Assembly: GCA_964543035.1 (NCBI GenBank)
Contig: CAZIVL010000002.1
Coordinates: 58,340 to 122,339, forward strand
DNA: 64,000 nucleotides
Origin: an uncultured Gammaproteobacteria bacterium
GTDB taxonomy: Bacteria; Patescibacteriota; Microgenomatia; CAZETR01; Amesbacteraceae
Direction: 5' to 3'
The notes beneath the pieces were generated by a model. It worked only from the letters and a program-made list of their open reading frames with translations, ran no database searches and was not told the origin of the DNA. Position 1 is the first letter of the stretch. Every line of letters starts with the position of its first letter. This document shows, piece after piece, positions 1,732 through 42,802 of this stretch. Position numbers and translations under genes: made by a program.

Positions 1732-2090
1732 GTACAAGTAACTCCAAACATAGGATCTATACAATGAGTGTCGCTTCCGTGTATCCACACTATGTAGCCA
1801 AGGCAGTGAAAAAAGGGAGAACTAAAGATGAGGTGGATGAAATCATTTGCTGGCTGACGGGATACAGTGAGAAAGAACTGGAGAAGCATCTGGAAAAAGA
1901 AACAGACTTTGAAACATTTTTTGGAGAAGCGCCGAAACTTAATCCGGCACGAAAACAGATCAAGGGTATCATCTGTGGCGTGCGAATAGAAGAGATACAG
2001 GATCCGCTCATGCGAGAGGTCAGGTATCTGGATAAGCTGATTGATGAGCTGGCAAAAGGAAAGACGATGGAGAAGATCCTAAGGGTTTAG
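1728..2090 (+). CDS. DUF2200-family protein
   Basis: 120 aa; [29 protein letters not shown] matches what I recall of DUF2200; start overlaps the upstream stop (ATGA), suggesting an operon. Confidence 0.45.
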
Positions 2091-2552
2091 TAAGACAATG
2101 GCTGCGTTCAGCATGGTGGCAAAGGTGACCCAGAGAAGATATGGTACAAGAAGATAGGCGGCGGGCCTAGATAGGGGGTAAAACTTTTTCATCGTCAATA
2201 CTATAAAAATCCACATGGACACAATGATTATCAATCCTAATGCTGGAGCTCTCAGACCAAAGAAAATAGGGGACCAAATAAAATTGAGAGCAAGCTGAAT
2301 GAGGAAAAACTTGCCGGCCTGTCTGACTTTATTTTTTTGGAAACCCTGCTTCCAAATCAAATAAATAGATATGCCCATCAGAAAATATAACAGCGTCCAG
2401 ACGGGGCCAAACAGCCAGTTGGGTGGGGAAAAGAAAGGCTTGTTAAGAGTAGTGTACCAAGTGGGGATGGATGAGATGGTGAATGGGGTACCGAGAATAC
2501 CTACTAGATCACAGCCGATTATAGAAATAAGAAGCTTGGGCAAGTCTTTCAT
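2079..2552 (-). CDS. tspO: TspO/MBR family tryptophan-rich sensory protein
   Basis: 157 aa, 5 predicted TM helices, Trp-rich; motifs [13 protein letters not shown] and [13 protein letters not shown] are characteristic of TspO. Confidence 0.8.
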
Positions 2553-8662: not shown

Positions 8663-8667
8663 ATAAT

Positions 8668-9714: not shown

Positions 9715-9715
9715 T

Positions 9716-10132
9716 ATGCAAAAACCCGGGTTAACCATGATCGAGCTAACGCTGGTTTTGGGACTGGTAGTCATGCTATCGGCAATTTCGGTGGGATGGT
9801 ATTCGCGGTTTTTGACCCAAAATGCAGTGTCTGACACGACTGATTATCTGGTGGAAACACTGAGAAAGGCGCAAGTTTACACGACGTCGGGGAGGTATGA
9901 CAGCGGTTGGGGAGTGTCATATGTGGCACCTACTATTACGTTGTACGCAGTGGGTACAAGTGCGTATAACGAGACATATACTGTGAATTCCAATATCTCT
10001 ATCTCGGGACTAACTAGTATTGAATTTTCTAGTCCGGCTGGAATTCCGAGTGCGACGGCGTCTATTGTAGTTTCGGGTAACAATACTAGTAAGACGATTA
10101 CAGTTAATTCGGCTGGATCGATATCTAGATGA
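9716..10132 (+). CDS. prepilin-type N-terminal cleavage/methylation domain protein (minor pilin)
   Basis: N-terminus MQKPGLTMIELTLVLGLVVMLSAI is a class III signal peptide (G-L-T-M-I-E-L). Confidence 0.75.
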   Translation: MQKPGLTMIELTLVLGLVVMLSAISVGWYSRFLTQNAVSDTTDYLVETLRKAQVYTTSGRYDSGWGVSYVAPTITLYAVGTSAYNETYTVNSNISISGLTSIEFSSPAGIPSATASIVVSGNNTSKTITVNSAGSISR

Positions 10133-11940
10133 AAAGAAAATTGGGATTCTCTGTCGTGGAAGTCACATTGGCCGTCGCTTTGTTTGCCATATTTGGAGTG
10201 GGAGTAGTCGTGGCTGTGATATCAAATCTGAGCTTAAACCAGTCGGGACAAGAACAAACGATTGCTAGTCAATATGCTTCTGAAGGGGTGGAAGCAATAA
10301 GGTCTATTAAAAACCAAAATTTTTCGGCACTAACTAATGGTAATTGGGGAATCGTTCAAAGCGGGGGAGTGTGGACACTATCTGGGGCTAATAATACTTG
10401 GGATAAATATACGCGGGTGATAAATATCTCTTCTGTGCAAAGAGATGTGAGTGGGAATATCGTGGCATCGGGAGGAACAGTAGATCCGGATACAAAAAAA
10501 GTAACGGTGACTGTGTCTTGGAACGTGAATCCTGTAAGACCTGTGTCGTCTGTAACTTCGTCATATGTCACAAACTGGAAAGCAGGGGTGGATGACGGGG
10601 TGATCGTGTATGGAGATACAGGTAACGCTACTATTCAGAGATATCGACTGTTTAATGACTCGACTAATTCTTTTACTACAGAGGGACCTGCGGGGTCGGG
10701 ATTTTCGGACGCGAGTGTGGGAAGAAGATTTGTTACGGCTAGTTCTCCGACCAAAAAAGAAGCAGTGGCGGGGTATGAAAGTTCTAGTGGGGCAATGAGG
10801 ATAATGTGTTTTGACGGAAGTACTTGGAGTAATGAATTTACGGTCGCTTTGGGAGGAAACCCCCTTATAGATGGAAGATTTGATATTGGGTATGAAAAAA
10901 GTACTGGCGATGTGATCGTGGTGTATTCGAAAAATGTAGCGAATACAAATGAACTGGCATATCGGACAAAATCGGGAAGCGTCGGTTGCGGGGCGGCTAA
11001 TTGGAGTGGGGAAAATCTATATGACGCAGTACGGACTACTGGGACTGTGCATTGGATAAGAGTAGAAAGTAATCCGGTATCCTCGTCATCCGATGTGGCA
11101 GTCGCATGGGCGGACTCGAACTCAGATCTGTCGGTTGCTATCTGGACGGGTAATTCGTTTGGCATTGCAGAGCCTGCGACTGTTCTTGAAAATAACCTGG
11201 AGCGGGCATCTGGTTCACAGGATGTATTATCTTTTGATCTGGCTTATGAAAGCTTGACGGGCAATCTGATGGTTGTATGGGGACTATTGCAGGCAACAAC
11301 TTGCACAGCCGGTACGACGATTGCGACCACTAATTGTATTCGGTATGCCAGATACTCGGGCGCTTGGGAAGCCGTGGCTGTGATACCTACGGTTGCAGAT
11401 CCGGCTACAAATATAGATATAGCTGGGAATCCAGCTAGTAATGAGCTAGCTCTGATTGCAGTCGATAATTCTCAGGCTGATACATCACTGGCTTATTGGT
11501 CGGGGAGTACTTGGACTGGGACTGCGAATAGAGATACTTCGGCGCAAGCAGTTTCCGCTGGAGCAAAACGTGTGGCAATAGGGTGGCTCAAATCTGGATC
11601 TACGAGTAGAAGTATTGCTGTGTACGATGATGCCGGAGCGACAACAAATATAGGTTGGGTGGTGGGAAACGGAGCGGTATTTACGAGTCAAACAGACGTG
11701 GCACCAACACCGGCTTTTGGGGCACCGCAGACGTGGTATGAGATATATCCTGATCCCATAAACACTGACAAGCTGATGTTCGTTGTTTCAGACAACAACA
11801 ACGATCTGTTTGCCAAGAGGCTGGTAATGACGTCTGCCCCGGCTTTTACCTGGACTAATTCAGACGGGGGAGCGGCTTTGGAGACATTGATGGGACAAGC
11901 AGTCGGGGCTCCTTATGGTTTTTCGTATTGGAAGCAATGA
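10129..11940 (+). CDS. large (603 aa) prepilin-type protein, probable minor pilin/tip protein
   Basis: N-terminus MKRKLGFSVVEVTLAVALFAIFGVGVV is a prepilin-like signal with E at +5, followed by about 570 aa of extracellular sequence. Confidence 0.65.
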   Translation: MKRKLGFSVVEVTLAVALFAIFGVGVVVAVISNLSLNQSGQEQTIASQYASEGVEAIRSIKNQNFSALTNGNWGIVQSGGVWTLSGANNTWDKYTRVINISSVQRDVSGNIVASGGTVDPDTKKVTVTVSWNVNPVRPVSSVTSSYVTNWKAGVDDGVIVYGDTGNATIQRYRLFNDSTNSFTTEGPAGSGFSDASVGRRFVTASSPTKKEAVAGYESSSGAMRIMCFDGSTWSNEFTVALGGNPLIDGRFDIGYEKSTGDVIVVYSKNVANTNELAYRTKSGSVGCGAANWSGENLYDAVRTTGTVHWIRVESNPVSSSSDVAVAWADSNSDLSVAIWTGNSFGIAEPATVLENNLERASGSQDVLSFDLAYESLTGNLMVVWGLLQATTCTAGTTIATTNCIRYARYSGAWEAVAVIPTVADPATNIDIAGNPASNELALIAVDNSQADTSLAYWSGSTWTGTANRDTSAQAVSAGAKRVAIGWLKSGSTSRSIAVYDDAGATTNIGWVVGNGAVFTSQTDVAPTPAFGAPQTWYEIYPDPINTDKLMFVVSDNNNDLFAKRLVMTSAPAFTWTNSDGGAALETLMGQAVGAPYGFSYWKQ

Positions 11941-12446
11941 TAAAAAATAAAAACAAATTTGGTTTTACTTTGGTGGAGATTATTTTGTATATAGGGATTG
12001 TGTCTATGATACTGGTCTCTGTCTCGTCTCTGGGGTGGATAGTGGTCTCGTCTGGGGCTAAAAGTCGGGTGCAAGAAGAAGTGTCGGGGACAGCCAGATA
12101 TGTGGCGGAAAGGATTTCGTATGAAATACGAAGAGCGTCGGGGATTGGAAGCTGGTCTGCCAATAGTATTACTTTGAATAATTTTGCGCCGGATACGACG
12201 ACTGTGATTACCTGGGATTCTCCAACTGGCAAGGTGAGGATAAACAAAAACGGAACGGGATTTGTAGATTTGAATTCCAACGATACGGCGGTGACTACGC
12301 TCACTTTTACCAACAACACGTCGGTAGATAACAAGACAAAAAACATTGGATTTACTCTCACTGTATCGGCGAACACTGCTTCTGGAAGTCAAATATATAA
12401 GTCAGAGACGACAGTTAGATCGACGGTAGAATTGAGGAGTAACTGA
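11937..12446 (+). CDS. prepilin-type minor pilin
   Basis: MIKNKNKFGFTLVEIILYIGIVSMIL class III signal peptide; start overlaps the upstream stop. Confidence 0.7.
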   Translation: MIKNKNKFGFTLVEIILYIGIVSMILVSVSSLGWIVVSSGAKSRVQEEVSGTARYVAERISYEIRRASGIGSWSANSITLNNFAPDTTTVITWDSPTGKVRINKNGTGFVDLNSNDTAVTTLTFTNNTSVDNKTKNIGFTLTVSANTASGSQIYKSETTVRSTVELRSN

Positions 12447-13993
12447 TGAAAAAAAATATGCGAGGTGGCTTCATTGCCACATATTCAGTCCTGGTAGTAC
12501 TAGCAGTAGTCGCGTCTGTGGCTACGGTGACTACATATTTGGCAGTGGGAAATGCCAAGGGATCACTGTCTTTTGCCAAGGGAGTGGATGCTTTGGGATT
12601 TGCGGAAGGATGCGTGGAAGATGGACTGCTTAAGGCTCGAGCTGCTGCTACATTTGGTGATCCAGTGGGAACTATTGTAACCGTGACCAGACCAGAAGGG
12701 ACGTGTCAGCTGACTGTGGACTCTAAGGTGGGGGAGGTGTGGACGATGACGGTCACGAACTTTGTGCCGACGCCTACAATTGCGGCTACGCCTACTCCTT
12801 CGAATACGCCGACTCCTTCACCAACGCTTGCTCCAACGGCTACTCCAGCGCCTTGGCCTACTCCTACTCCTAATGGCCCAACGCCTACAGCAGGGCCGAC
12901 GTGTGTGATGCGAAATGTAAGTACGCCATTAACTGACTTGGGAGGGGGAGAGTATATGCGACTTACCACGATCAATCCCGAGACATATACAGCAACGGGG
13001 GTTATTGGGGGATTGTATCCTGGAGGAGTGAATATCCGGCCCGGAATACATAAAACAGATGGGCTGGCAGCGGCTGCCTCGATCCAACCACTTGATGCCA
13101 CCGGCGTGCCAGATGGGGAGGGACTGATCGGAATGACTTCGATCGGGATGTCAAACACGTCTACGGAATTTGGGGTGTTCAAGTCTTTGGCGGACGCCGA
13201 TTCGCAAAAAAATTCTAAAGTCAAAATCGCCAATGGGGCTTTGTCGGGGTCGGTCGTGGAAGTGTGGACGGATCCTTTGAATAATAACTTTAACTATGCT
13301 TGGAATACGCATTTACCCCAACAGATAACGCAAGCGGGGCTAACTAATGCTCAAGTGCAGGTCGCTTGGATAAAAGTGACGCAGTTTGCTTACCAACCTG
13401 ATTTTCCGGCTGCGATGGTGAATCTAAAAGGAATGTATGAAGAATTGGCTAGGCTTTTGAAAGCCAGATTTCCGAATCTGAGAATCACTTATTTTTCCAG
13501 TCGCACTCGGTCGTTTTCATATCTGGGAGGACTATCGGGTGAATCGACGGCTTTTGAAAATGCATTTGCCGTGCGGTGGATGATCGAGGATCAGATGAAT
13601 GGACTGGGAAATGTGAATTTTAATCCTAATAATGGTCCAGTTGTCGCTTCGTATATTACTTGGGGACCGTATTTGTGGATAGACGGCGAGAATGCGAGGG
13701 GTGATGGGCGAACGTGGCCTGCAAATAGTGTGGTCTCTGACTGTACTCATCCATCTACTTGGGGATCGACGATGGTGGCGGATATGTTGACCCAACACTT
13801 TAAGACTGATGAAACGGCCGCTCCTTGGTACTTGGCTGCTCCTGGAGGTACGCCCTCACCCACGCCAACTCCAACCGCGGCACCAACACCAACCCCCGCA
13901 CCTTATGTGAGCGTGCAAAATCAAAGAACGATACGAGTGATATTTAATCGGACTGGATCTGGGCTGACGCTAACTTCTTGGCAAGAGCTGTAG
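12446..13993 (+). CDS. pilus-locus protein with N-terminal hydrophobic anchor and two Pro/Thr-rich linkers
   Basis: 515 aa; N-term GFIATYSVLVVLAVV; linkers PTPTIAATPTPSNTPTPSPTLAPTATPAPWPTPTPNGPTPTAGPT and GGTPSPTPTPTAAPTPTPAP; no known catalytic motif recognised. Confidence 0.5.
   Translation: MKKNMRGGFIATYSVLVVLAVVASVATVTTYLAVGNAKGSLSFAKGVDALGFAEGCVEDGLLKARAAATFGDPVGTIVTVTRPEGTCQLTVDSKVGEVWTMTVTNFVPTPTIAATPTPSNTPTPSPTLAPTATPAPWPTPTPNGPTPTAGPTCVMRNVSTPLTDLGGGEYMRLTTINPETYTATGVIGGLYPGGVNIRPGIHKTDGLAAAASIQPLDATGVPDGEGLIGMTSIGMSNTSTEFGVFKSLADADSQKNSKVKIANGALSGSVVEVWTDPLNNNFNYAWNTHLPQQITQAGLTNAQVQVAWIKVTQFAYQPDFPAAMVNLKGMYEELARLLKARFPNLRITYFSSRTRSFSYLGGLSGESTAFENAFAVRWMIEDQMNGLGNVNFNPNNGPVVASYITWGPYLWIDGENARGDGRTWPANSVVSDCTHPSTWGSTMVADMLTQHFKTDETAAPWYLAAPGGTPSPTPTPTAAPTPTPAPYVSVQNQRTIRVIFNRTGSGLTLTSWQEL
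12775..12900 (+). repeat. coding low-complexity (Pro-Thr)n linker repeat
   Basis: ACGCCTACTCC-type degenerate tandem repeats encoding PTPTPSPT inside the 12446..13993 ORF. Confidence 0.6.
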
Positions 13994-14000
13994 AGGGCTG

Positions 14001-14029
14001 TTGACAAGCTCTCCAGAATAGTCTTTACT
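14001..14029 (+). promoter_or_regulatory. putative sigma70-like promoter of the major pilin gene
   Basis: TTGACA (14001-14006), 17-nt spacer, TTTACT (14024-14029), 10 nt before the ATG at 14040. Confidence 0.3.
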
Positions 14030-14039
14030 AGATGTAGAT

Positions 14040-14528
14040 ATGAAAACTGGTTTTAAGCGTGGTTTTACACTGATTGAACTTTTGATGGTGGTCGCGATTA
14101 TTTCTCTTTTGGCCGTATCGGTGTTTGTGGCTCTGAATCCCTCTAAGAGATTGCGTGATACTAAAGATGCGAGAAGAGCAACAGATGCGGATACGATTTT
14201 AACTGCCATTCATCAATATATTGTCGACAACAAAGGATCTTTGCCAACTGGTCTTACTACACCGATGGTTATCACAATGTTGGGAACAGGATCTGCTTGT
14301 AGTACCACTCCTGGTGCTTATTGCGGATCGGTACCGGCAGCTTGTGTGAACTTGACTACACCGTTGGCCACCTATTTGAAGAGTATGCCGATTGACCCCA
14401 ACGGAACCTCAGGAACACCAGCATTTGATGCAGCCAAGACTGGCTATGCAGTGACAGTAGACGCTAACGGTATTGTGACGGTCACTTCATGTTCTTCAGA
14501 AAATTCGGCCATTACTGTCTCCAGGTAG
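14040..14528 (+). CDS. pilA: type IV major pilin
   Basis: MKTGFKRGFTLIELLMVVAIISLLA canonical prepilin leader (G-F-T-L-I-E-L); 162 aa with a C-terminal Cys pair. Confidence 0.85.
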   Translation: MKTGFKRGFTLIELLMVVAIISLLAVSVFVALNPSKRLRDTKDARRATDADTILTAIHQYIVDNKGSLPTGLTTPMVITMLGTGSACSTTPGAYCGSVPAACVNLTTPLATYLKSMPIDPNGTSGTPAFDAAKTGYAVTVDANGIVTVTSCSSENSAITVSR

Positions 14529-14556
14529 GTCTCCGAATTTAGTGTAAAATTGATGT

Positions 14557-15156
14557 ATGAGATGGATTGTAAGGGTGGGGAACAGGGGAATTCAAATCGT
14601 ACAGGATCATCCTGATGCGACTTTCACCTGGGGATACCCGGAAAGTTTGGTGGTAAATGGTGATGTAATAGATGAAAAGAAGCTGTGCGAAGCATTTTTG
14701 CAATTTGTAAAAAACAACAGAAAAAGACCAGTGCAGACCGTGGTAACTCTGACTGAGGAAGTAGTGTTTTATAAAAAAGGTATATTAAAGACTGGGCTTC
14801 AGGAATTTTTGGATCTGGTACCCCTAGAAGAAGCGAAGATGATAAAAAAGATTGTCGAGTACAAAGATGGAAAGGTCGATGTGTGGGTATGCAATAAGAG
14901 CTTGGTAAATGCGATTGTGACTGCCCTGGATGGAAAACTGGAGGGGGTCGTCTCTGAGGCAATGCTAAAAGATGGGGACTATAAAAATGTGTGGAAAGAT
15001 AGAAACGGTTTGAGAAATGGAAGCTTTTTGACTAAAGGGAATGGGACGGCTGGGACATCTGAAAAAACTTGGACGTGGCTCGTGTGGGGAGTGGGAGTCA
15101 TGATCTGGCTGGGGATAATCGGGGCGCTCATATATTTTAAGGTGTTGACAAAATAA
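14557..15156 (+). CDS. hypothetical protein with C-terminal TM anchor, downstream of pilA
   Basis: 199 aa; C-terminal WTWLVWGVGVMIWLGIIGALIYF helix; no recognised domain. Confidence 0.35.
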   Translation: MRWIVRVGNRGIQIVQDHPDATFTWGYPESLVVNGDVIDEKKLCEAFLQFVKNNRKRPVQTVVTLTEEVVFYKKGILKTGLQEFLDLVPLEEAKMIKKIVEYKDGKVDVWVCNKSLVNAIVTALDGKLEGVVSEAMLKDGDYKNVWKDRNGLRNGSFLTKGNGTAGTSEKTWTWLVWGVGVMIWLGIIGALIYFKVLTK

Positions 15157-15194: not shown

Positions 15195-15465
15195 GACATA
15201 CAGACCAAAAGATACTAAAGAAAGAATAATTCACAGACTAAAGATCTCCCGGGGACATCTGGATCGGGTAATAAAAATGGTAAGTGAGGACGCGTATTGT
15301 ATTGATGTCATGCATCAGCTGCAAGCCATTGAGTCAGGACTATCTGAAACTGGAAACACACTTTTGGAAAATCATTTGAAGTCGTGTGTGGCAGATGCTA
15401 TCAAGGGTGGGAGGGCACAAGAATCGATAGAGGAAATTATGCAAGTGTTTAAGAAAAAGAAATGA
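15193..15465 (+). CDS. csoR: copper-sensing transcriptional repressor CsoR (CsoR/RcnR DUF156 family)
   Basis: 90 aa; [16 protein letters not shown]...[16 protein letters not shown] with a conserved Cys-His-Cys pattern (C36/H61/C65-like). Confidence 0.85.
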
Positions 15466-17558
15466 TCAAAAAGACTTATGAAATAAAAGGAATGCACTGT
15501 GCATCTTGCGTGAGTGTGATCGAAAAAAGTCTAAAAAAAGTGCCTGGAGTAACCGATGTGGTGGCAAATCTGGCCAGTAATAAGGCTACGGTGACAATGG
15601 AACATGAGTTGCCAGAGGCCGAATTGGCAACTGCTGTAAAAAAAGTAGGGTACACCCTGGGGATAAGTGAACACGAGCATGCGAACGGATCACATGTGGT
15701 AATCCCCATGACTTTGGTGGGAGTGAGTGTAGTAATAATGCTTTGGGAGTCCTTACTGCCTATGAGTGCTTTTGTAGAAGAATTGTTTCATCATATTTTG
15801 CCACTGATGGCCACATATATGATGTTTTCTGTGGGGAGGCCATACTTATTGGGAATATGGCGGTTTTTGAAATATAAAAAGGCGGATATGGATGCACTTG
15901 TAGGAATCGGGACGGGAGTGGCGTTTCTTTATAGCTTTTGGTCATCGGTGACTGGAGGCGAATATGTATATTATGATGTGGTAATTGTGGTCATAGGGTT
16001 GGTTACCTTGGGCAAACATCTGGAAGCGGTAGCGCGAGCCCACACGTCGGATGCGATCAAAAAACTTTTGGGATTGTCACCCAAGCAAGCCCGAGTGATA
16101 CGAGGTGAAAATGAGATAGATGTGCCAATCGAACAAGTGGTTCTGGGAGACATGATCCGGGTGCGACCAGGGGAAAAAGTACCCGTGGATGGAGTGGTAG
16201 TAGAAGGTGAATCGGCGGTGGATGAATCGATGGTGACAGGAGAAAGTATGCCAATTGAGAAAAGAGTGGGTATGGATGTAATTGGGGCGACAGTGAATAA
16301 AACGGGTAGTTTTGTCATGAAGGCGAAAAGAGTCGGATCTGAGACCATACTTTCACAAATTATTAGGCTGGTCGAAGAGGCGCAAGGATCGAAAGCGCCT
16401 ATTCAGAGGCTCGCAGACTCGGTGTCAGAATATTTTGTGCCGGTAGTTTTGATACTAGCCCTGGCGACATTTCTGATATGGGGATATGTGCTGGGAGACT
16501 TCAGACAGGGAACAATCGCTGCAGTGACGGTTCTGATCATTGCTTGTCCGTGTGCGATGGGACTGGCTACACCCACGGCTATTATGGTGGGTACGGGACT
16601 GGGAGCCTCGCGGGGAATATTGATAAAAAATGCAGCTGCTTTGGAAATGGCAAATAAGGTACAAACAGTAGTGTTTGATAAAACTGGAACTCTCACTCAG
16701 GGTCGGCCTGAGGTGGTGTATTTTTCTTCTAAAAAAGTACTTGCAATTGCAGCAAGCATCGAAAAAGCTTCGGAACACGTGCTGGCAGAAGCAATAGTCC
16801 GAAAAGCTCACGATGAAGGAGTGAAACTGGAGAAGGTAACAAAGTTTGCTGCAATTGTAGGACAGGGAGTGGAGGGAGTGGTGATGGGTAAGAAGTGGGT
16901 AGTGGGTCGTGTTTTGACAAAGGAGTATGAGGAACAGGTTAGAAAATTGGAGAGCGAGGGGAATACAGTCATTTATGTGTCACAGGGAGAAAATGTAGAA
17001 GGAATAATAGCGGTTGCTGACACAGTGAAAGAAACGGCTGTGGAGGGGATATTGGTACTACAAAAATTGGGACTTGAGGTAGTGATGATGACAGGGGATA
17101 ACAAGAGGACAGCTGATGCTATTGGGACGCAACTGGAAATAGACAGGGTACTTTCTGAAGTAAAACCCGCTGACAAAGAATCTGAGGTGCGAAAGATACA
17201 GAAAGAAGGAAAAATTGTGGCTATGGTGGGAGATGGAATAAATGATGCGCCGGCACTGGCTGTTTCGGATGTGGGGATGGCTATGGGGACGGGGACTGAT
17301 GTAGCAATAGAAGCCTCATCGGTGACCCTCGTTAACCGAGATCTGAAAACAGTAGCAGCCACCATAGAGCTATCCAGAAAGACAATGAGAACAATTGTCA
17401 TGAACCTGGTCTGGGCATTTGGATACAATATTGTCCTTATACCCGTGGCCATGACGGGAAATCTAAATCCGATGCTTGCTGGCCTGGCAATGGCTCTGTC
17501 CTCGGTCTCGGTCGTGACTAACTCATTACTTTTGAAACGTGCGAAAATACATATATGA
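15462..17558 (+). CDS. copA: copper-translocating P1B-type ATPase
   Basis: 698 aa; N-terminal HMA domain [11 protein letters not shown] motif [19 protein letters not shown] phosphorylation site, GDGINDAP hinge. Confidence 0.95.
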
Positions 17559-18484
17559 ATCTGTGGGTCATACTATTTACGGGACTGACTGTGGGAGGGC
17601 TGACGTGTCTGGCTGTCCAGGGAGGACTTTTGGCTTCGATTATTGCTACAAATGAAAACAAAAATACACTGAGGCCAACCTTGATATTTTTGATGGCAAA
17701 ATTAGCGGCGCATGCTGCTTTGGGATTTGGGCTGGGGGCGTTTGGGAGTGTGGTGGGAATATCGGATAACGTTACTTTGACAGTGCAAATACTAGTCGGG
17801 GTATACATGATCTTGGTGGCACTGAATCTACTGGATATCCACCCAATATTTAGGTATGTGCAGATCCAACCGCCAAAGTTTCTGGCAAAAAAGATTAGAA
17901 CAGCATCGACTCCGGCACTTCTGGGACTCATGACGGTATTTATGCCTTGTGGAACAACTTTGGCTATGGAAGCGCTGGCGGTGGGAAGTGGAAATCCGGT
18001 AACGGGGGCTCTTATTATGGCGGTATTTGTCCTGGGGACTACACCTGCTTTTTTGGGAATTGGATACGCTTCCTCTAAACTGGGGGATAAATATAGAAAG
18101 AACTTTTTTAGACTGGCGGCCATACTGGTCATGTACTTGGGACTGTCTTCTATAAATGGAGCGTTGATTGTAAAAGGGATAAATATACTTCCTCAAAGAG
18201 AAAGTGGAGAATCAGAGACGACACAAAATGTGACTATAAATGTGATGGCTTATGGATACGAGCCGCGATATGTGAAAGTAAAACAAGGTGAGGAGGTCAC
18301 TGTGACCCTGGTCGGAAAAGGGGGATACTCTTGTGCTTCGGCATTTAGAATACCGAGCTTGTCGATTGGGAAAAACCTGCTTCCTGATGAAAAATATACT
18401 TTTTCTTTTACACCAACTAAGAAAGGTAAAATACCTTTTACTTGTTCGATGGGAATGTACACTGGCGTAATCGAGGTCATATGA
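17555..18484 (+). CDS. polytopic membrane protein (DsbD_2/TauE-like, Cys-containing) fused to a C-terminal cupredoxin-like domain
   Basis: 309 aa; about 6 TM helices with LTCLAVQGG and [11 protein letters not shown]; the C-terminal 90 aa ([25 protein letters not shown]...[14 protein letters not shown]) looks like a cupredoxin beta-sandwich. Placement between copA and copZ suggests a copper-related function. Confidence 0.5.
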
Positions 18485-21287: not shown

Positions 21288-22583
21288 TTATTTTCCTTGG
21301 TATAGGGCAAAGTCTTCAGTGTGAATTGAGCGAGATTTCATCCCTAGATCTGTCAACTGCTTTTTGAGTGAATCCATCATGGGGAGTGGGCCGCAAATAA
21401 AAACGTCCCGAGACAAAAGATCTGGAACCAGAGAGGCAATCTTTTTTGCATCTAGGCGACCTGATTCTTTGGATGAATACAGATGAAAATGAAATTGGGA
21501 ATTGGTCTTTGCTTGGGTTTCAAATTCGTTGATATACACAGCTTCGTTTGGGGTTGCCACTGCATAAATAAGATCAATCGTGTAAGGACTACCCTGATCC
21601 ATGTGTCTGCACATGCTCAAAAATGGAGTGATACCGATGCCGCCTGCTATCCAGATCTGATGAATGTTGGCTGTATTGAGATATGAAAATACCCCGTAAG
21701 GACCCTCAATAAGCACATGATCCCCAGGCTTTACTAATTTGAGTGTCTCGGTGTAATCGCCTAAAGATTTGGCGGCTATGCTGATGTCTGCCGTGTTGGG
21801 GTTACTAGTAAGAGAAAATGGATGAACCTCGGAACTGACACCTTTTGAGGATACTTCTAAAAATACGAATTGACCCGGTCGGTAGGTGAGACTTTTTGTT
21901 ATTGGGGAAAGACAGATTTCGGTGACTTCGCCTATTACAGTGGAGGAAGTGATTGTAAAGGGTAATCTGCGAACCATCTTTTTGAAGAACACTGTTCTAT
22001 ATATGAATGAAATTAAGGCAAGAGCAGAGAGAATAAGAAGATATCCTTTTAGGATGTAATTTTGGTTTAGATTTCCCGGCACAATTAACATATGGACAAT
22101 AGCTGCAGCAAAAGAAATACCTAATAACTGATGTGAAAGTTTCCATAGCTGATATTTTATTTTTGTAAAAAAAGTAATGGAAAGAAGAATGATCATGATA
22201 AACAACGCGATTCCTCCAATAAGATTTGCTGGAAGTGAGCGGGAGGGGATAAAAAATTGTGCGACGAATACGATAGAGGCAGGAAGATACTCTAGCGAAA
22301 GAAGTACGGGGTGGAAAAGAAGCAAGATAAGAGATATGGCACCTATGTAATGGTGATAAAAGTATATTCGGTTTAGGCCAACAAATATCTTTTCTAAAAA
22401 GTGATATCTGGCCGAGAGAATGAAATTGAGGGCAAATAAAGCCGTGCCTACGATAGCAGTAAGTTGTCCCAGCGAAACAATGGGGCTAGAGGACGATCTT
22501 GAAAAAAAATACCAGAGAAAAACTGGGCAAATTGTTATAATCGAGACGAATATTAATCCTTGTGACTCACGAAATGACCTCAT
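21288..22583 (-). CDS. ferric reductase-like flavocytochrome (FRD transmembrane domain + FAD-binding + NAD(P)-binding FNR-like domains)
   Basis: 431 aa; N-terminal 6-TM region with conserved His (HHYIGAISL...FHPVLL ... HQLLGISFAAAIVHMLIV), then RPGQFVFLE (FAD-binding RxYS-like) and GGIGITPFLSM (NAD-binding GGxGxxP). Confidence 0.75.
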   Translation of the reverse strand: MRSFRESQGLIFVSIITICPVFLWYFFSRSSSSPIVSLGQLTAIVGTALFALNFILSARYHFLEKIFVGLNRIYFYHHYIGAISLILLLFHPVLLSLEYLPASIVFVAQFFIPSRSLPANLIGGIALFIMIILLSITFFTKIKYQLWKLSHQLLGISFAAAIVHMLIVPGNLNQNYILKGYLLILSALALISFIYRTVFFKKMVRRLPFTITSSTVIGEVTEICLSPITKSLTYRPGQFVFLEVSSKGVSSEVHPFSLTSNPNTADISIAAKSLGDYTETLKLVKPGDHVLIEGPYGVFSYLNTANIHQIWIAGGIGITPFLSMCRHMDQGSPYTIDLIYAVATPNEAVYINEFETQAKTNSQFHFHLYSSKESGRLDAKKIASLVPDLLSRDVFICGPLPMMDSLKKQLTDLGMKSRSIHTEDFALYQGK

Positions 22584-23142: not shown

Positions 23143-24447
23143 ATGAAACTAAACAAGATTCAAATTGCAGTGGGGGTATCGTTAGTTTTGTTTTTTGTAA
23201 CTGTCACAGGTCTAGTCGGAACAGGACTGTGGGTCATGAAATTTCAGGAGAAGAAATCTCTTCCAGAGAAGACAGAAGACGTGGTGGTAAACAGTGTCCT
23301 TTCGGTAGAGGATGTGGCGGTACATAAGACAGTTGGTGACTGTTGGATTATTATTTCCGGAAAAGTATATGCTGTGTCTGGTTATCTGGGAACACATCCT
23401 GGAGGGGCGCTAGTAATTGCTCCGTACTGTGGAAAAGATGCAACTGAGGCATTTGCAACTAAGGGACGAATGCCTGCAGAATCACATAGTGGGACGGCGA
23501 CTGGTTTGCTGGATGAATATTTTGTAGGAAATATTGGGGAGATAATCACACAGATGGTGCCAACTACTGGGCCTACTCTTGTACCTGGACAGATAACACC
23601 GACCTCTGTATCCAAGCAATCTGTGGGAAATACAAATACTCAAGTTTCTTTGACGAATTCTGAGGTGTCGTCTCACAATACACTTTCTAACTGTTGGCTC
23701 ATCATATCTGGCAATGTATACAATGTAACTAGTTATTTGTATCAACATCCAGGAGGTGCAAGTGCGATATCTCCATACTGTGGTAAAGATGGAACTACGG
23801 CTTTTGCCACCAAAAATAAAGGTTCGTCTCACTCGTCTGTCGCAAATAATTTATTGAACAATTATTTGATAGGCACCATAGGACAGTTGGTGGTACTTGC
23901 ACCGAGTCCTACGACAGCGGTAGTAATTTTTGTACCTACGAATACCCCGGTACCACAAAATTTGACCCTAACCTCATCTGAAGTCGCAACTCACAATACG
24001 TTGCAAAACTGCTGGATGATTATCTCCAATAATGTGTACAACATTACGAGCTACGTATATCAACATCCTGGTGGGTCATCGATCTTGGCACAGTATTGTG
24101 GACGCGAAGCAACTACCGCATTTCAAACACAGGGCGGGAGGGGGAGTCACTCTAACAATGCTTCAAATTTACTGAATAATTTTCTAATAGGAACTCTGAA
24201 TTCTTCAGTAGTCGTCAACCCAACTAACACACCAGGCCCGGGAGGTACAAATCCAACTGCGACTCCAGCATCTTTTGGAGGAAGCTTGCCGGCTGCGATT
24301 ACAAACATGTACCCCGGGGCAACCAAAAAAAGTGGGGGATACGAAGATAATGGAAGTTGGGAAGGGAAGATAAATACCTCCTCTGGACAATGCAGGGAGA
24401 TGAAAGTTAATAGTTCGGGAAGTATAACTGAGAACCAAAGCTGCTAA
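23143..24447 (+). CDS. membrane-anchored protein with three tandem cytochrome b5-like heme-binding domains
   Basis: 434 aa; N-terminal TM; three repeats of about 100 aa each with HPGG and downstream SHS (VHKTVGDCWIIISGKVYAVSGYLGTHPGGALVIAPYCGKDATEAF...SHS; SHNTLSNCWLIISGNVYNVTSYLYQHPGGASAISPYCGKDGTTAF...SHS; THNTLQNCWMIISNNVYNITSYVYQHPGGSSILAQYCGREATTAF...SHS). Confidence 0.75.
   Translation: MKLNKIQIAVGVSLVLFFVTVTGLVGTGLWVMKFQEKKSLPEKTEDVVVNSVLSVEDVAVHKTVGDCWIIISGKVYAVSGYLGTHPGGALVIAPYCGKDATEAFATKGRMPAESHSGTATGLLDEYFVGNIGEIITQMVPTTGPTLVPGQITPTSVSKQSVGNTNTQVSLTNSEVSSHNTLSNCWLIISGNVYNVTSYLYQHPGGASAISPYCGKDGTTAFATKNKGSSHSSVANNLLNNYLIGTIGQLVVLAPSPTTAVVIFVPTNTPVPQNLTLTSSEVATHNTLQNCWMIISNNVYNITSYVYQHPGGSSILAQYCGREATTAFQTQGGRGSHSNNASNLLNNFLIGTLNSSVVVNPTNTPGPGGTNPTATPASFGGSLPAAITNMYPGATKKSGGYEDNGSWEGKINTSSGQCREMKVNSSGSITENQSC
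23300..24150 (+). repeat. three tandem intragenic repeats of about 300 bp (cytochrome b5 domain triplication)
   Basis: Protein-level repeat seen directly in the translation; DNA copies have diverged. Confidence 0.6.
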
Positions 24448-32593: not shown

Positions 32594-32849
32594 GGCGTCA
32601 CGAAACATCTGGCCTATAAAGCGAAAGGTGGCGACAAAGGCCCGGGCCGTAAAATTGATGGCCGTACCGATAACTGTGGGAGCAGCTTTGGCTATTTTTA
32701 CTTGGACTTGTTTTTGGAATGAATCTGGCATGTGGCTATTTGGTATGATCATACCAGAGTATGAAGATGCCTTTGGTCAATAAAATTGTGGTGGGGGGGA
32801 TAATCCTTGTGATATTGGGACTCATGTTATCTGCTGGGGTGGCGACAAA

Positions 32850-33410
32850 ATGAAAACGACAATACTGATTGTGGTGCTTTTGGCTGTGGGGATAATCGGA
32901 TCTGTGAAAGAATACAAACAATGGAGAGTGGATGAGACAAGTAATTATGGGCAAGGCCCTCTCGGTAAAACGAATACGGGAGATACAAAGCTGAGTGCTG
33001 ACAAGCTGTACCAAAATGATGTCGCGGGATTTCGGATAAAGTATCCGTCCTCTTGGGAAGTAGTCGCAAATCCTAAATTTAGTGATGGTAAGTACAGTCT
33101 CTCTCAGATTGCACGTATGGATGAGAGGGCAGAAGTAGTTCTCTTTGGGGGGCGAATCAGAGTAAGTGTAGTGCGAAATAGCTTGAATTTTACAGACTTG
33201 GTGGATCAGGAGGCCAGAAAAATGGAAATGGTGCGGGAACGAGAATATCTAAATACTGAAAAAGTTAGTATCGTTATTTTGACTTGGAAGCAGAATGGAC
33301 GAGAAAGACAGACCGCATTTGCACACAAAGGGGGAGATAAAGTATTTGTCCTGGAACAAGATGGAGTAGGTGGCTGGGAAGAAGTGCTTAGGAGTATGGT
33401 GATACTTTAG
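32850..33410 (+). CDS. hypothetical secreted protein
   Basis: 186 aa with N-terminal signal/TM; no recognised domain. Confidence 0.35.
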   Translation: MKTTILIVVLLAVGIIGSVKEYKQWRVDETSNYGQGPLGKTNTGDTKLSADKLYQNDVAGFRIKYPSSWEVVANPKFSDGKYSLSQIARMDERAEVVLFGGRIRVSVVRNSLNFTDLVDQEARKMEMVREREYLNTEKVSIVILTWKQNGRERQTAFAHKGGDKVFVLEQDGVGGWEEVLRSMVIL

Positions 33411-33970
33411 CGATTCTTTTTGGTTTTTTTGTGAAGACTAGGCTTGATGTGGTAGGTGATGAAATAGAGAGCGATAATAATCAGGATGACGGCAAAAACT
33501 GCGAGCTGAAAGACGGGGAGAGAAAGAGGAGAAAGAGAAGTCTCGGGTGGAGTGGTAGTAAAAGAGGCTGTGGATACAGTCTTGGGGATGAGGGCTGTGT
33601 GGGCATTGGTTACTAATTCGGCTTGTACGGTGTGGGGGCCATATTTGAGATTTGTGAGAGTATAAGTGTCGCTGGTGACTTCTATGGCATTTTCGGAAGT
33701 GGGGCGGTCTTGGTCTACCCAGAGATGAATATGGCCTTGGCCATAAGTCGCTTTGGGGCGAGTATGGTAGTCAGTGAGTGTGATGTAGGAAGGGATAGAA
33801 AAAGTAAGCGTATTTCCCTCTTTTGGAGCAGCGACTGAGAAGGAGGTTTCGGCGCGAGCCTTGACTACTCCTGCTACAAAAAGAAAGAACGCGGCCATGA
33901 GGAGAATCTTTTTCAGGTGTTTGCGAGCAGTCACATGTATCATTGTGAAGTGTTGTAAAAAGGGTGTCAA
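33407..33970 (-). CDS. hypothetical exported protein with C-terminal TM anchor (His-rich GQGHIHLWVD motif)
   Basis: 187 aa; signal peptide, beta-rich region with HxH, C-terminal anchor LAVFAVILIIIALYFI plus a basic tail. Confidence 0.35.
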   Translation of the reverse strand: MTPFLQHFTMIHVTARKHLKKILLMAAFFLFVAGVVKARAETSFSVAAPKEGNTLTFSIPSYITLTDYHTRPKATYGQGHIHLWVDQDRPTSENAIEVTSDTYTLTNLKYGPHTVQAELVTNAHTALIPKTVSTASFTTTPPETSLSPLSLPVFQLAVFAVILIIIALYFITYHIKPSLHKKTKKNR

Positions 33971-34008
33971 GTTGGTATATTTTGGAAACTGTGAATAAAA
34001 ACTTACTA

Positions 34009-34428
34009 ATGGGAGTGGCGGTAGTCTTGGTAGTTGGAGGATTGGGAGTATGGTACTTGGGACGAAATCCTAAAACTGAAATTCTAAATTCTAAAGACGT
34101 TGTCGAAAGTACACCAGCTCCGACGCCTGGACCTACGGTAGAGTCACTGGGAGAAGTAAAGGAGTTTGTAGTAAATGGAAATGACTTTAAATTTGATGTA
34201 ACTGAGATAAGAGTAAAAGTTGGGGATAAGGTAAAAGTGACGTTTAAAAACACTGGAGGATTTCACGACTGGGTCTTGGATGAATTTAACGTAAAGACCG
34301 CCCAACTTAAAGATGGAGCGGAGGAAACAGTGGAGTTTGTGGCAGAAAAAGCAGGGACATTTGAATACTATTGTTCTGTAGGCAAGCACAGACAAATGGG
34401 AATGGTGGGAAAGCTGATTGTGGAGTAA
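34009..34428 (+). CDS. cupredoxin (type 1 blue copper protein), membrane-anchored
   Basis: N-terminal TM; type-1 Cu ligands H(DWV)...C..H....M in FHDWV...YYCSVGKHRQMGMVGKLIVE; PT linker before the domain. Confidence 0.8.
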   Translation: MGVAVVLVVGGLGVWYLGRNPKTEILNSKDVVESTPAPTPGPTVESLGEVKEFVVNGNDFKFDVTEIRVKVGDKVKVTFKNTGGFHDWVLDEFNVKTAQLKDGAEETVEFVAEKAGTFEYYCSVGKHRQMGMVGKLIVE

Positions 34429-34794
34429 TTATTTTAGCGTGTAGGTTGAGGTAGTAGTGCCACCAGAGCGAAGAGTGTAAGTGACTGAGAGATTGAAACC
34501 TGAAGGGGATTTTTGAAAGACGCAGTAGCGGGACGAGCAGGTACCTAGGATTTGCTTGCGGGTGGTTTTGGAAGTACGTCCATTTAACTTAAAGCCGCCT
34601 TCGAATCCTCGTTCCCGGCCCCCTGATGTATAGGTGAGCACATAACTGACTTTTGAAACTTGTGACAGGTTTTTGAAGGTGAGATAAACATAGTGACGAT
34701 CACGAGTTGGCAAGAGTGTGGCTGATGGAGCTGCTGCTGAGGCGATCGGAGCAAACAAAAGAAATATGAATAAGACCCATGACCAGATGCGCAT
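34429..34794 (-). CDS. hypothetical secreted protein
   Basis: 121 aa with signal peptide MRIWSWVLFIFLLFAPIASA; Thr/Ser-rich. Confidence 0.3.
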   Translation of the reverse strand: MRIWSWVLFIFLLFAPIASAAAPSATLLPTRDRHYVYLTFKNLSQVSKVSYVLTYTSGGRERGFEGGFKLNGRTSKTTRKQILGTCSSRYCVFQKSPSGFNLSVTYTLRSGGTTTSTYTLK

Positions 34795-34811
34795 GAATCA
34801 ATTGTGGAGGG

Positions 34812-35291
34812 TTGAGAAGCATACGTCAAGTTTGGTATATTTGGGTGGTGAATAAGTATGTAGTGATAGGGGTTGTGGTAATTGGAATAGTAGTAGGGGG
34901 AGTCGCGATCTGGTACGCCGGCTCAAACTCTAAACCTCAAGAGACAAATACAAAAACGGAAGAAGTAGTAACCATTGAGCCGACACAACCGCCAGTTGAT
35001 GAAACGACCACGGGTGAGGTGAAAGAAATAACTGTAGAGGGAAGTAGCTTTAAATTTGAGCCGGCAGTGATCAGAGTCAAAAAGGGAGACACAGTGAACC
35101 TGACATTTAAAAGTGTGGGGACCATACACGACTTTGTGATAGATGAGCTTGGTGTGAAGACAAATCAAATTGGGGATGAAGAGGAAGAGACGGTGGAATT
35201 TGTGGCAAATAAAGCTGGAACTTATGAGTATTATTGCTCTGTAGGCAAGCACAGGCAAATGGGGATGGTGGGGAAATTAATAGTTGAATAG
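34812..35291 (+). CDS. cupredoxin paralog (type 1 blue copper protein), membrane-anchored
   Basis: IHDFV...YYCSVGKHRQMGMVGKLIVE is the same Cu site as the 34009 gene; the true start may be a GTG near 34845. Confidence 0.8.
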   Translation: MRSIRQVWYIWVVNKYVVIGVVVIGIVVGGVAIWYAGSNSKPQETNTKTEEVVTIEPTQPPVDETTTGEVKEITVEGSSFKFEPAVIRVKKGDTVNLTFKSVGTIHDFVIDELGVKTNQIGDEEEETVEFVANKAGTYEYYCSVGKHRQMGMVGKLIVE

Positions 35292-35367: not shown

Positions 35368-35745
35368 ATGGCAGTTGTAAGTTTTTTGGATTTGAATGTA
35401 TACAAAAATTTGTATCAGGTGATGCTGAGAATACACAAAGAAGTTCTACCCAAATTGCCAAAGACTGAAAAGTTCGACTTAGTTGATCAAATGGGTAGGG
35501 CCTCAAAGTCTCCATGCGCCTTAATTGCAGAAGGATACGCAAGGAGAACATCTGGTAAGGAGTGGGCTAAGTATTTGAGAGATGCAGTGGGAGAGTGCAA
35601 TGAAATGATTGTGCATCTGAGCATGGTCCGTGACTTGTATGGAAGCAGTATTGGAGTTGAGATGTGTAACGAGTTAATTTCTTGCTACAACATTTCAGGC
35701 AAACAGCTATACAGATTGGGTGAAAGTTGGGGTAGGGTAGAGTAA
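35368..35745 (+). CDS. four-helix-bundle protein (TIGR02436 / 23S rRNA intervening-sequence protein family)
   Basis: 125 aa; family-typical pattern FDLVDQMGRASKSPCALIAEGYAR...EWAKYLRDAVGECNE. Confidence 0.7.
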   Translation: MAVVSFLDLNVYKNLYQVMLRIHKEVLPKLPKTEKFDLVDQMGRASKSPCALIAEGYARRTSGKEWAKYLRDAVGECNEMIVHLSMVRDLYGSSIGVEMCNELISCYNISGKQLYRLGESWGRVE

Positions 35746-35788
35746 TAGTGTATTTGACAATTGGTGACAAAAAATTCACAATAATCTG

Positions 35789-36118
35789 GTGAAGAAAAGT
35801 TTTTGGGTGTGGGTTCTCGCTTTGGGAGTTGTGATCGTGGCTATGGGATTTGGGTGGGTGTGGCCAGTCAAACTGACTGGGTTTTTGGCAGTGTTTGCTG
35901 CCTGGATGGGCTGGTGGGACAAGAGAAAAAATGATGTGCAGTGGTATGCGATGGGATTTGTCCTGGGGCCGTTTATTGACTTGGTGGGAGTCTATGGGGG
36001 ATCGTGGCAGTATGGAGCACCGTTTGTGCTAGGTATTCCTGTGTGGCTACCATTTGCATATGGATTGAGTGGGCTGCTGCTACGAAGACTAGCTGAGAGT
36101 TGGATATCGAAAAAATAA
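35789..36118 (+). CDS. small membrane protein
   Basis: 109 aa, 3-4 TM helices, Trp-rich. Confidence 0.3.
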   Translation: MKKSFWVWVLALGVVIVAMGFGWVWPVKLTGFLAVFAAWMGWWDKRKNDVQWYAMGFVLGPFIDLVGVYGGSWQYGAPFVLGIPVWLPFAYGLSGLLLRRLAESWISKK

Positions 36119-42442: not shown

Positions 42443-42802
42443 ATGGCTGGTACTTTTAAGGACTTGCTGATTTGGCAGAAAGGACTGGAATTACTGCTGA
42501 TTGTTTACAAGATCACCGCTTCGTATCCAAAAGATGAAAGATATGGATTGGTCGATCAGACGAGGAGATCTTCGAATTCCATAATCGCATTAGTTGCTGA
42601 GTCTCACGGTAGATACCATTATGCCGATAAATGTAGAGTACTTTATCAGGCGCGAGGTGAATGCGAAGAAACACAAAGTCATTTGTTAGTTGCTGAACGA
42701 TTGGGATATGTGGATAAAAAAGTAATATCTGATTTGGAACAAGAGTATGAGATACTTGGAAAAAGGATTAATTCATACATTAATTCGATTAAAACCGATT
42801 AA
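42443..42802 (+). CDS. four-helix-bundle protein (TIGR02436 family)
   Basis: 119 aa; YGLVDQTRRSSNSIIALVAESHGRYHYADKCRVLYQARGECEE, same family pattern as the 35368 gene. Confidence 0.7.
   Translation: MAGTFKDLLIWQKGLELLLIVYKITASYPKDERYGLVDQTRRSSNSIIALVAESHGRYHYADKCRVLYQARGECEETQSHLLVAERLGYVDKKVISDLEQEYEILGKRINSYINSIKTD

Follow-up and report, generated by a model that had tools for sequence, protein, structure and literature searches.

The 64 kb window analysed here (the whole stretch of 64 000 nt, from contig CAZIVL010000002.1) comes from a bacterium of the Candidate Phyla Radiation (CPR) and contains two neighbouring genes for membrane-anchored type-1 copper cupredoxins, named cupA and cupB in this work, which lie amongst four small genes designated w186, w187, w121 and w109. 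CPR bacteria, or Patescibacteria, are regarded as fermenters without electron-transport chains. Our preferred reading, to which we give an even chance, is that the locus encodes an extracytoplasmic blue-copper electron-carrier module fed by NAD(P)H in a fermentative, Amesbacteria-like member of the Microgenomates. In this model, the cupA and cupB products would act as one-electron carriers at the external side of the cytoplasmic membrane. The donor would be a transmembrane NAD(P)H-oxidising flavocytochrome, here the FRE/NOX-like protein encoded at 21288-22583, which would push electrons across the membrane and probably act via an anchored protein with three cytochrome b5 domains (23143-24447). 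The outcome would be a quinone-independent disposal of reducing equivalents outside the cell, with O2, nitrite, metal ions or a host-derived acceptor as candidate terminal acceptors. The coordinates of all features are collected in Table 1.

The initial annotation of this region described two anchored type-1 copper cupredoxin paralogues, interleaved between positions 33407 and 35291 with exported proteins encoded on the opposite strand, and this description was borne out. Four open reading frames (ORFs) occupy the interval. The His-rich protein that precedes the pair, w187, carries the GQGHIHLWVD motif together with a signal peptide and a C-terminal transmembrane (TM) helix, and the small secreted protein between the cupredoxins is w121, which has a signal peptide. 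Both cupredoxins matched the Pfam families Copper-bind (PF00127; 40.8 bits for cupA and 43.2 bits for cupB) and Cupredoxin_1 (PF13473; 36.8 and 43.0 bits), exceeding the gathering scores of 21.2 and 27, respectively. The maximal ORFs are 33964-34428(+) for cupA (154 aa) and 34812-35291(+) for cupB (159 aa), and the true starts are likely to be internal GTG codons at 33991 and 34848, giving products of 145 and 147 aa. The cupB start gives the length of a public protein that is 99% identical to cupB (P0018).

The two proteins share 59% identity, and their 21-residue C-termini, which include the copper loop, are identical as originally noted (EYYCSVGKHRQMGMVGKLIVE). The spacing of the copper loop in both is C-x4-H-x4-M, a spacing that rusticyanin likewise has. 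All four type-1 copper ligands were invariant across 42 aligned cupredoxin homologues and, amongst 87 distinct locus-derived relatives, the first His, the Cys and the second His were each present in 87/87 and the Met in 86/87. Each protein has one N-terminal hydrophobic helix (residues 5-23 in cupA and 4-22 in cupB) followed by a Pro/Thr-rich linker; in one relative (L077) a canonical lipobox, LLAAC, replaces the helix. The helix and flexible linker are predicted to hold both cupredoxins on the outer face of the cytoplasmic membrane, an orientation read from the sequence.

The best match amongst solved structures was to residues 50-128 of 2dv6 (E 4.6e-13; loop YYCSIAGHRQAGM), followed by plastocyanins. 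In 2dv6, the nitrite reductase NirK of Hyphomicrobium denitrificans, this region forms an additional cupredoxin domain at the N-terminus that relays electrons. The plastocyanin/azurin family (PF00127), including 2dv6, shares with cupA and cupB the fold, the His...Cys-x4-His-x4-Met pattern, export and the single cupredoxin domain. Unlike the 2dv6 domain, cupA and cupB stand alone on an N-terminal TM helix and linker; no fusion to a NirK core of the HdNIR type was found in either protein, and both are single-domain at 145 and 147 aa. The setting also differs, the organism represented by the window having neither a photosystem nor a bc1/b6f complex, and no known oxidase. Neither protein fell into a named subfamily: against the plastocyanin equivalog TIGR02656, cupA and cupB scored 34.5 and 41.0 bits (cut-off 87.85), and both were far under every cut-off of the NCBIfam models for amicyanin, pseudoazurin, halocyanin, nitrosocyanin and rusticyanin. 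The assignment of cupA and cupB as type-1 copper cupredoxins is well supported, as is their predicted role as tethered extracytoplasmic one-electron carriers.

The candidate electron donors emerged from the gene neighbourhoods of related cupredoxins. Across 80 species-level loci, we clustered the four flanking genes to each side of the cupredoxin; in 15 loci a candidate redox partner was encoded within ~0.8 kb. In 11/80 loci the partner was a full FRE/NOX-type protein, with Ferric_reduct, FAD and NAD domains, located 0-800 nt from the cupredoxin. Ten of these 11 genes were on the cupredoxin's strand with gaps of 0-257 nt, and they were found on either side of it. In one further locus (L017, 3967-7399), the cupredoxin comes after genes for an FMN_bind protein, ApbE and a fusion of an RnfD-like TM domain to FAD and NAD domains, a set which is a flavinylation-type transmembrane electron-transfer system in place of FRE. 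In three others (L040, L060 and L090), an anchored single cytochrome b5 is encoded 4-19 nt downstream of the cupredoxin, and in two of them DoxX is next. Additionally, an FRE protein with the TM domain only is encoded near the cupredoxin in L055, and DoxX is nearby in L065. The FRE (Ferric_reduct) domain has been reported in only 19% of CPR genomes (bioRxiv 10.1101/2021.11.17.468889), and by our own rough estimate, which assumes ~1000 genes per genome, chance adjacency of FRE would account for ~0.03 cases in 80 loci. The recurrent adjacency makes an FRE/NOX-like flavocytochrome, possibly acting via cytochrome b5, the likeliest candidate as donor to the cupredoxins.

Within the window itself, the FRE gene (21288-22583) and the gene with three cytochrome b5 domains (23143-24447) fit the definition of the CPR-specific pFre and cytochrome b5 locus, namely a Ferric_reduct gene with one or more b5-domain genes within 10 kb (bioRxiv 10.1101/2021.11.17.468889). 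The window has the same pairing of FRE with an anchored multi-b5 protein as the loci of that study, in which the terms 'cupredoxin' and 'plastocyanin' are absent; the adjacency of FRE or b5 genes to a cupredoxin, in 14/80 genomes plus one RnfD-like case, is added here. The suggestion that the cupredoxins form part of an extracytoplasmic redox set fits these neighbourhoods, and the proposed connection with the FRE/b5 pair of the window is backed by the adjacency of cupredoxins to homologues of that pair in other CPR genomes.

Several other genes recurred in the neighbourhood survey. TspO was found 0.5-5 kb from the cupredoxin in 6/80 loci (L012, L020, L022, L036, L066 and L072), and the window also contains a gene of this TspO/MBR, tetrapyrrole-binding family (2079-2552(-)). 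MsrA recurred in four loci, MsrB in five and thioredoxin-like proteins in four.

The cupredoxin family as a whole is widespread, with more than 1264 matching clusters. At least 498 GTDB species representatives of the CPR carry it, and it spans Microgenomates, Parcubacteria, WWE3, Gracilibacteria and metagenome-assembled genomes labelled as Saccharibacteria. In public databases its members usually go under 'plastocyanin', or else under 'blue (type 1) copper domain-containing protein'. In 2025, single-cupredoxin proteins termed 'pcy' were proposed to carry electrons to NirK in some Patescibacteria (PMC12931201). As the family is common and 'pcy' has already been discussed, a blue-copper protein in a CPR genome is not surprising in itself, and the view that such components are unexpected for the organism was overstated. 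Our literature searches on CPR with plastocyanin or blue copper otherwise returned little. The CPR-wide 'pcy' probably belongs to the same broad family as cupA and cupB and is likewise a proposed carrier, but in that study it was tied to NirK and an unknown quinol oxidase, whereas the neighbours found here are FRE/NOX-like, RnfD-like/ApbE/FMN_bind and cytochrome b5 genes (PMC12931201). Beyond 'pcy', the window contributes a pair of paralogues together with four partner genes that are conserved.

For the partner gene w187, the maximal ORF, 33407-33970(-), encodes 187 aa, and the true start is likely to be the GTG codon at 33934, in register with the Met of a homologue (P0001) and giving 175 aa. 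An exhaustive profile search returned 505 representatives at E<=1e-3, many of which have the same architecture as w187; many others carry 2-10 tandem copies of the domain. An AlphaFold2 (AF2) model of w187 was a seven-strand sandwich with a mean pLDDT of 89. Across 385 domain copies, conservation was 98% for H80, 88% for H82, 87% for D86, 88% for H113, 91% for N122 and 88% for H124, giving a His cluster with the pattern GHxH...D, GxH and NxH. A metal site formed by the conserved His residues is plausible, as read from the strand register of the model only.

Against DUF4399 (PF14347), w187 scored 19.4 bits (E 1.4e-3), below the gathering score of 28. Of 54 aligned w187 relatives, 39 matched DUF4399 at E<=0.01, and the fused and multi-repeat relatives exceeded the threshold. 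The GHxH...D and NDH motifs are common to w187 and DUF4399; w187 differs in its sub-threshold score and its type-I anchored architecture. No function is on record for DUF4399 in the literature. It had been suggested that w187 might adopt the fold of a copper chaperone of the CopC or PCuAC type. These proteins resemble w187 as small exported beta-sandwiches with potential metal ligands, but w187 did not combine a specific fold match with their copper-ligand motif, and the suggestion was not supported.

A link between w187 and cupredoxins came from domain fusions. Nine or ten of the top 149 w187-family representatives have a C-terminal Cupredoxin_1, Copper-bind or sulfocyanin domain, and several of these fusion proteins add the wall-associated domain Cu_amine_oxidN1. 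Five proteins (P0164, P0169, P0259, P0269 and P0286) combine Cu_amine_oxidN1, zero to two Pfam-detectable copies of DUF4399 and a plastocyanin-like domain; DUF4399 was not detected by Pfam in P0259. A sixth, P0280, joins DUF4399 to sulfocyanin (SoxE). The fusions occur in other lineages and, by their predicted domain content, are independent evidence for an association between w187 and the cupredoxins. These relatives represent uncharacterized multidomain copper proteins outside the window. We speculate that w187 might supply or hold copper for the cupredoxin, or dock it, through the conserved His/Asp site.

The w121 protein has 16 relatives, one of them from Candidatus Amesbacteria, and its AF2 model (mean pLDDT 88.5) was all-beta and Ig-like with no specific structural relative. 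The w186 protein scored 24.2 bits against PsbP_2 (PF18933; gathering score 27). Amongst ten members of its family, four matched PsbP_2 and two matched PsbP, and the family profile had weak PDB matches to DUF1795 (6e8a) and DcrB. These matches to the Mog1-PsbP-like fold of PsbP, DUF1795 and DcrB are weak but consistent, all lying below curated cut-offs, and w186 resembles DcrB in being membrane-anchored and extracytoplasmic. It is set apart from these families by its own juxtamembrane motif, W-E-Y-R-x-W-R-x-x-E-T-x-N-Y-G-Q-G, and no conserved His, Cys or Met was found in the w186 family. It is possible that w186, w121 and w109 serve as scaffolding or assembly factors; a role for any of the partner proteins in copper loading, docking or assembly is speculative.

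The partner genes form a recurrent cluster with the cupredoxin. In relatives, the usual arrangement is a single cupredoxin with w121(-), w186(+), w187(-) and w109(+), in the order BacA/PAP2, w121(-), w186(+), w187(-), cupredoxin(+), w109(+), TIM, SDR, RpiB, PGK. The four partner families occur together, in several orders and orientations, in L002, L005, L008, L011, L013, L015, L018, L045, L076 and L092, and w186 adjoins the cupredoxin in the first nine of these. The genes w121, w186 and w187 cluster with a cupredoxin in L002-L011, L013, L015, L018, L045 and L076 as well as in 15 metagenome loci. A cupredoxin lies <=2.7 kb from a w187 relative in 15/60 metagenome loci, almost all of which also have w186 or w121. 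In the cupredoxin scan, the cluster was present in 5/80 genome loci, pointing to a narrow clade. The window also has the order of glycolysis and pentose-phosphate genes that is typical of CPR/Microgenomates. Homologues occur in Amesbacteria and in groundwater metagenome-assembled genomes, and the cluster is conserved in Amesbacteria-like Microgenomates. The numbers of relatives (505 for w187, 16 for w121 and more than 1264 for the cupredoxins), together with the AF2 confidence values, indicate that w187, w121 and both cupredoxins are real genes rather than chance ORFs.

The intergenic regions of the cluster contain promoter-like sites that overlap divergently. The motif TTGAC-N16-19-CACAAT was found four times in the window against an expectation of 0.22, and none of 100 shuffled sequences reached four copies. 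For three of the four copies, the distance to the start codon, that of w187, w121 or w109, is 6-8 nt: the w121 minus-strand site stops 6 nt short of the ATG, and TTGACA-17-CACAAT is 6 nt upstream of the w109 coding sequence (CDS). The fourth copy lies inside the gene for the protein with three b5 domains. This arrangement suggests that the w187, w121 and w109 transcripts could be leaderless and co-regulated as a shared regulon, and each of the pairs cupA/w187 and cupB/w121 is predicted to share one compact bidirectional promoter.

Comparison of cupA and cupB by the Nei-Gojobori method gave a non-synonymous divergence (dN) of 0.33 and a proportion of synonymous differences (pS) of 0.74 overall, with synonymous sites saturated; for the cupredoxin domain alone, dN was 0.23 and pS 0.81. 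The final 25 codons contained 15 synonymous differences and one non-synonymous difference, and the identity of the C-termini therefore reflects purifying selection. Recent gene conversion of this region was ruled out, as 15 of ~15.7 synonymous sites differ there. Loss of the copper ligands or pseudogene status would have undermined the assignment, and pseudogene status was likewise ruled out by ligand conservation in the 42 and 87 relatives and by strong purifying selection on both genes. A second genome (L092; GCA_964531395.1) has the order cup-w121(-)-cup-w109, as in the window, and in a neighbour-joining tree its two cupredoxins paired with cupA and cupB, respectively. The tree was poorly resolved at depth and was used solely for this pairing, which places the duplication before the split of the two genomes. 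By these comparisons cupA and cupB are old paralogues, both of which appear intact and maintained.

The proposal that a whole module was duplicated stood in part. The w187/cupA and w121/cupB intergenic regions are homologous, with 47 invariant columns of ~72, so that the duplicated unit comprised the bidirectional promoter and the cupredoxin gene. The minus-strand genes w187 and w121 belong to unrelated families, and a tandem duplication of the complete module was rejected on this basis. The gap between the w121 and cupB ORFs, at 17 nt, is too short for module remnants, and the interval 32594-32849 was not searched for remnants of w121.

Table 1. Features of the cupredoxin locus and of the candidate redox and copper genes of the window
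Feature	Position (nt)	Strand	Description
cupA	33991..34428	+	145 aa; type-1 copper cupredoxin domain (ligands H92, C128, H133, M138) preceded by an N-terminal TM anchor and a Pro/Thr linker
cupB	34848..35291	+	Paralogue of cupA, 147 aa; ligands H94, C130, H135, M140; stands where relatives have the one cupredoxin of their cluster
w187	33407..33934	-	Signal peptide, one DUF4399-like FN3/Ig-type beta-sandwich, C-terminal TM helix, basic tail
w121	34429..34794	-	Secreted all-beta Ig-like protein, 121 aa, signal peptide, invariant QILGTCSxxxC (CX4C)
w186	32850..33410	+	N-terminally anchored PsbP/DUF1795/DcrB-like protein, 186 aa, conserved cluster member
w109	35754..36118 (CDS 35789-36118)	+	Small polytopic membrane protein; downstream of the cupredoxin in relatives
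Divergent overlapping promoter-like sites, w187/cupA	33942..33981	both	Minus TTGACA-17-CACAAT; plus TTGTAA-17-TGgTATATT
Divergent overlapping promoter-like sites, w121/cupB	34801..34841	both	Minus TTGACG-17-CACAAT; plus TTGAGA-18-TGgTATATT
TTGAC-N16-19-CACAAT copies	33942-33970(-), 34801-34829(-), 35754-35782(+), 23650-23679(+)		
FRE/NOX-like flavocytochrome	21288..22583	-	Ferric_reduct TM, FAD and NAD domains (Pfam); putative electron donor
Anchored protein with 3x cytochrome b5	23143..24447	+	Pfam; putative intermediate carrier; single-b5 homologues in L040, L060, L090
DsbD_2 membrane domain and cupredoxin-like domain fusion	17555-18484	+	Next to CopA at 15462-17558

A further cupredoxin-like domain in the window, fused to the DsbD_2 membrane domain beside CopA, had been counted amongst the redox components. 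It has no type-1 His ligands and instead contains GGYSCASAF... and C...CSMGM, the latter corresponding to the C...CxMxM pattern that forms the Cu(I) cluster in CupA of Streptococcus pneumoniae, a protein with an N-terminal helix tether (PMC7558416). From these motifs, the fusion probably works with CopA in handling Cu(I) rather than in carrying electrons. CopA, this CupA-like Cu(I) domain, the FRE gene and the triple-b5 gene all lie 11-18 kb upstream of the cupredoxins.

The presence of these genes raises the alternative that cupA and cupB, together with the His-rich w187 and its four conserved His plus Asp, buffer, sequester or chaperone surface copper in concert with CopA. There are precedents for such a role: CopI is a periplasmic protein of copper resistance that resembles plastocyanin, and CupA is a chaperone that is anchored and cupredoxin-like (PMC7558416). 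Both share the cupredoxin fold with cupA and cupB, and CupA also the N-terminal helix tether. In contrast to both, cupA and cupB have a canonical and invariant type-1 site, with H/C/H/M ligands, and neither the Cys...Cys-x-Met-x-Met Cu(I) site of CupA nor a His/Met-rich region was found in them. Against the CopI model NF051440 they scored 27-29 bits (cut-off 280), over the final ~28 residues only. Furthermore, the cupredoxins are not beside copA in the window, a CopA-type ATPase occurs within 5 kb of the cupredoxin in just 3/80 loci, and the Met and Cys ligands usual in Cu(I) chaperones are absent from w187. A copper-resistance role of the CopI or CupA type thus fits the cupA and cupB sequences poorly, and we consider the copper-handling alternative improbable.

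A second possibility is the classical role, in which the cupredoxins feed a terminal enzyme, NirK or another, whose gene lies outside the window, and the local partners are irrelevant. The proposal that a single-domain 'plastocyanin' donates electrons to NirK in some Patescibacteria (PMC12931201) provides a precedent, the closest solved relative of the cupredoxins is the NirK N-terminal domain described above, and our analysis covered 64 kb of the genome. It had been suggested to look for partners such as nitrite reductase or oxidases elsewhere in the genome. Pfam scans, which took in 70 further ORFs, including all but one of those >200 aa, found no NirK, multicopper oxidase, haem-copper oxidase or bd oxidase in the window, and no bc1. 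Nor was a terminal oxidoreductase seen amongst the recurrent cupredoxin neighbours in the 80 loci, although no NirK-specific search was run and the cupredoxin profile used would detect NirK only weakly. The redox genes that do recur beside the cupredoxin are those for FRE, RnfD-like and b5 proteins. To our knowledge, CPR bacteria lack complex III, so that a NirK role would still need an upstream donor. We regard the classical role as unlikely when taken on its own terms; it overlaps with the NAD(P)H-fed module, for which NirK could be the missing acceptor.

It could also be argued that w186, w187, w121 and w109 are linked to the cupredoxins by inherited gene order only, and have unrelated envelope functions, w187 being an Ig-like surface or stalk protein. 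The cluster is restricted to a narrow clade, the folds of w187 and w121 are generic beta-sandwiches, and many members of the w187 family consist of 2-10 tandem repeats, like adhesins or stalks. However, the four families stay together despite their varied orders and orientations, DUF4399 is fused to cupredoxin and sulfocyanin domains in unrelated architectures, and the bidirectional promoter-like regions and the rare motif connect w187, w121 and w109 to the cupredoxin genes. An invariant His cluster would also be unusual for a pure spacer. A purely positional association is, in our view, improbable.

It should be noted that a number of observations weigh against the NAD(P)H-fed module. In 65/80 related loci there was no exporter gene within ~0.8 kb of the cupredoxin, and in the window FRE and b5 are ~11 kb away rather than adjacent. 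With no terminal oxidoreductase in the window or recognized amongst the neighbours, the proposed chain is without a demonstrated end. The anchor topology of b5 and the cupredoxins was assigned from hydrophobicity only, and the promoter calls are consensus matches whose total count was no higher than in shuffled sequence. With regard to w187, its multi-repeat relatives, with up to 9-10 copies, resemble surface or stalk proteins, and ~40/60 of the more distant relatives (31-39% identity) had no cupredoxin within 5 kb; these are single-domain proteins, and in the metagenome loci the neighbourhood was confined to close members of the clade, so that the DUF4399-cupredoxin link is not general.

Our analysis also revealed further features of the region and its relatives. 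The automatic gene call of a public contig identical to the window (L001) missed both w187 (9444-10007) and w121 (10466-10831), and placed plus-strand ORFs of 61 and 68 aa over w187, possibly owing to strong strand compositional bias. GC skew is positive in every 2-kb bin of the window (range 0.06 to 0.40), and the plus strand carries nearly all of the genes; a complete Microgenomates genome reportedly shows an unusual strand composition disparity (PMC7143001). The genes w186 and w187 converge, with 3' ends that overlap by 4 nt (33407-33410) and by 77 nt in L013 (6465-6541), where only 3 nt separate the start codons of the divergent pair w121 and w186. Two PF05635 genes, annotated as '23S rRNA intervening sequence protein' (bAvd-like, four-helix), are inserted into conserved gene orders: 35368-35745(+) in the gap between cupB and w109, and 42443-42802(+) in the gap between GAPDH and Rpe. 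A 79%-identical copy occupies the same place in L008. In a sub-clade represented by L015 (4619-5682), L098, L099, L105 and L133, two extra genes precede the canonical cluster, one encoding a polytopic protein of 234 aa that weakly resembles the RnfD-like TM domain, and the other a 120-aa anchored cupredoxin-like protein with a degenerate site that has no Cys ligand. Upstream of the copper genes, the window contains a type IV pilus-like set (6977-15156) comprising a T2SSE ATPase, a T2SSF platform protein, several N-methyl prepilin-like proteins and large unannotated proteins.

Taken as a whole, the locus represents a lineage-specific version of an already known type of system, and its value lies in the two testable links from the cupredoxin to FRE/b5 and to DUF4399. 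Both, seen as the adjacency of cupredoxins to FRE, RnfD-like or b5 genes and as the DUF4399-cupredoxin fusions, look new against the literature searched. Should the links prove not to be functional, the window would hold merely another 'plastocyanin-like' gene pair with clade-specific envelope neighbours. Hundreds of CPR species keep a tethered blue-copper protein without a known job, and, if the links are functional, they would define a minimal, testable extracytoplasmic redox chain for the CPR and give DUF4399 its first functional handle. A bolder and rather doubtful extension is that the DUF4399-like His-cluster domain of w187 is an unrecognized copper centre acting directly with type-1 cupredoxins, either as a type-2-like site for catalysis or electron acceptance or as a dedicated copper-insertion factor outside the cytoplasm. 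Together with the FRE/NOX-like flavocytochrome and cytochrome b5, it would make up a quinone-independent chain running from NAD(P)H through haem b and blue copper to a surface acceptor. If true, 'non-respiring' CPR bacteria could use such a chain to discharge electrons to the exterior, possibly to a host.

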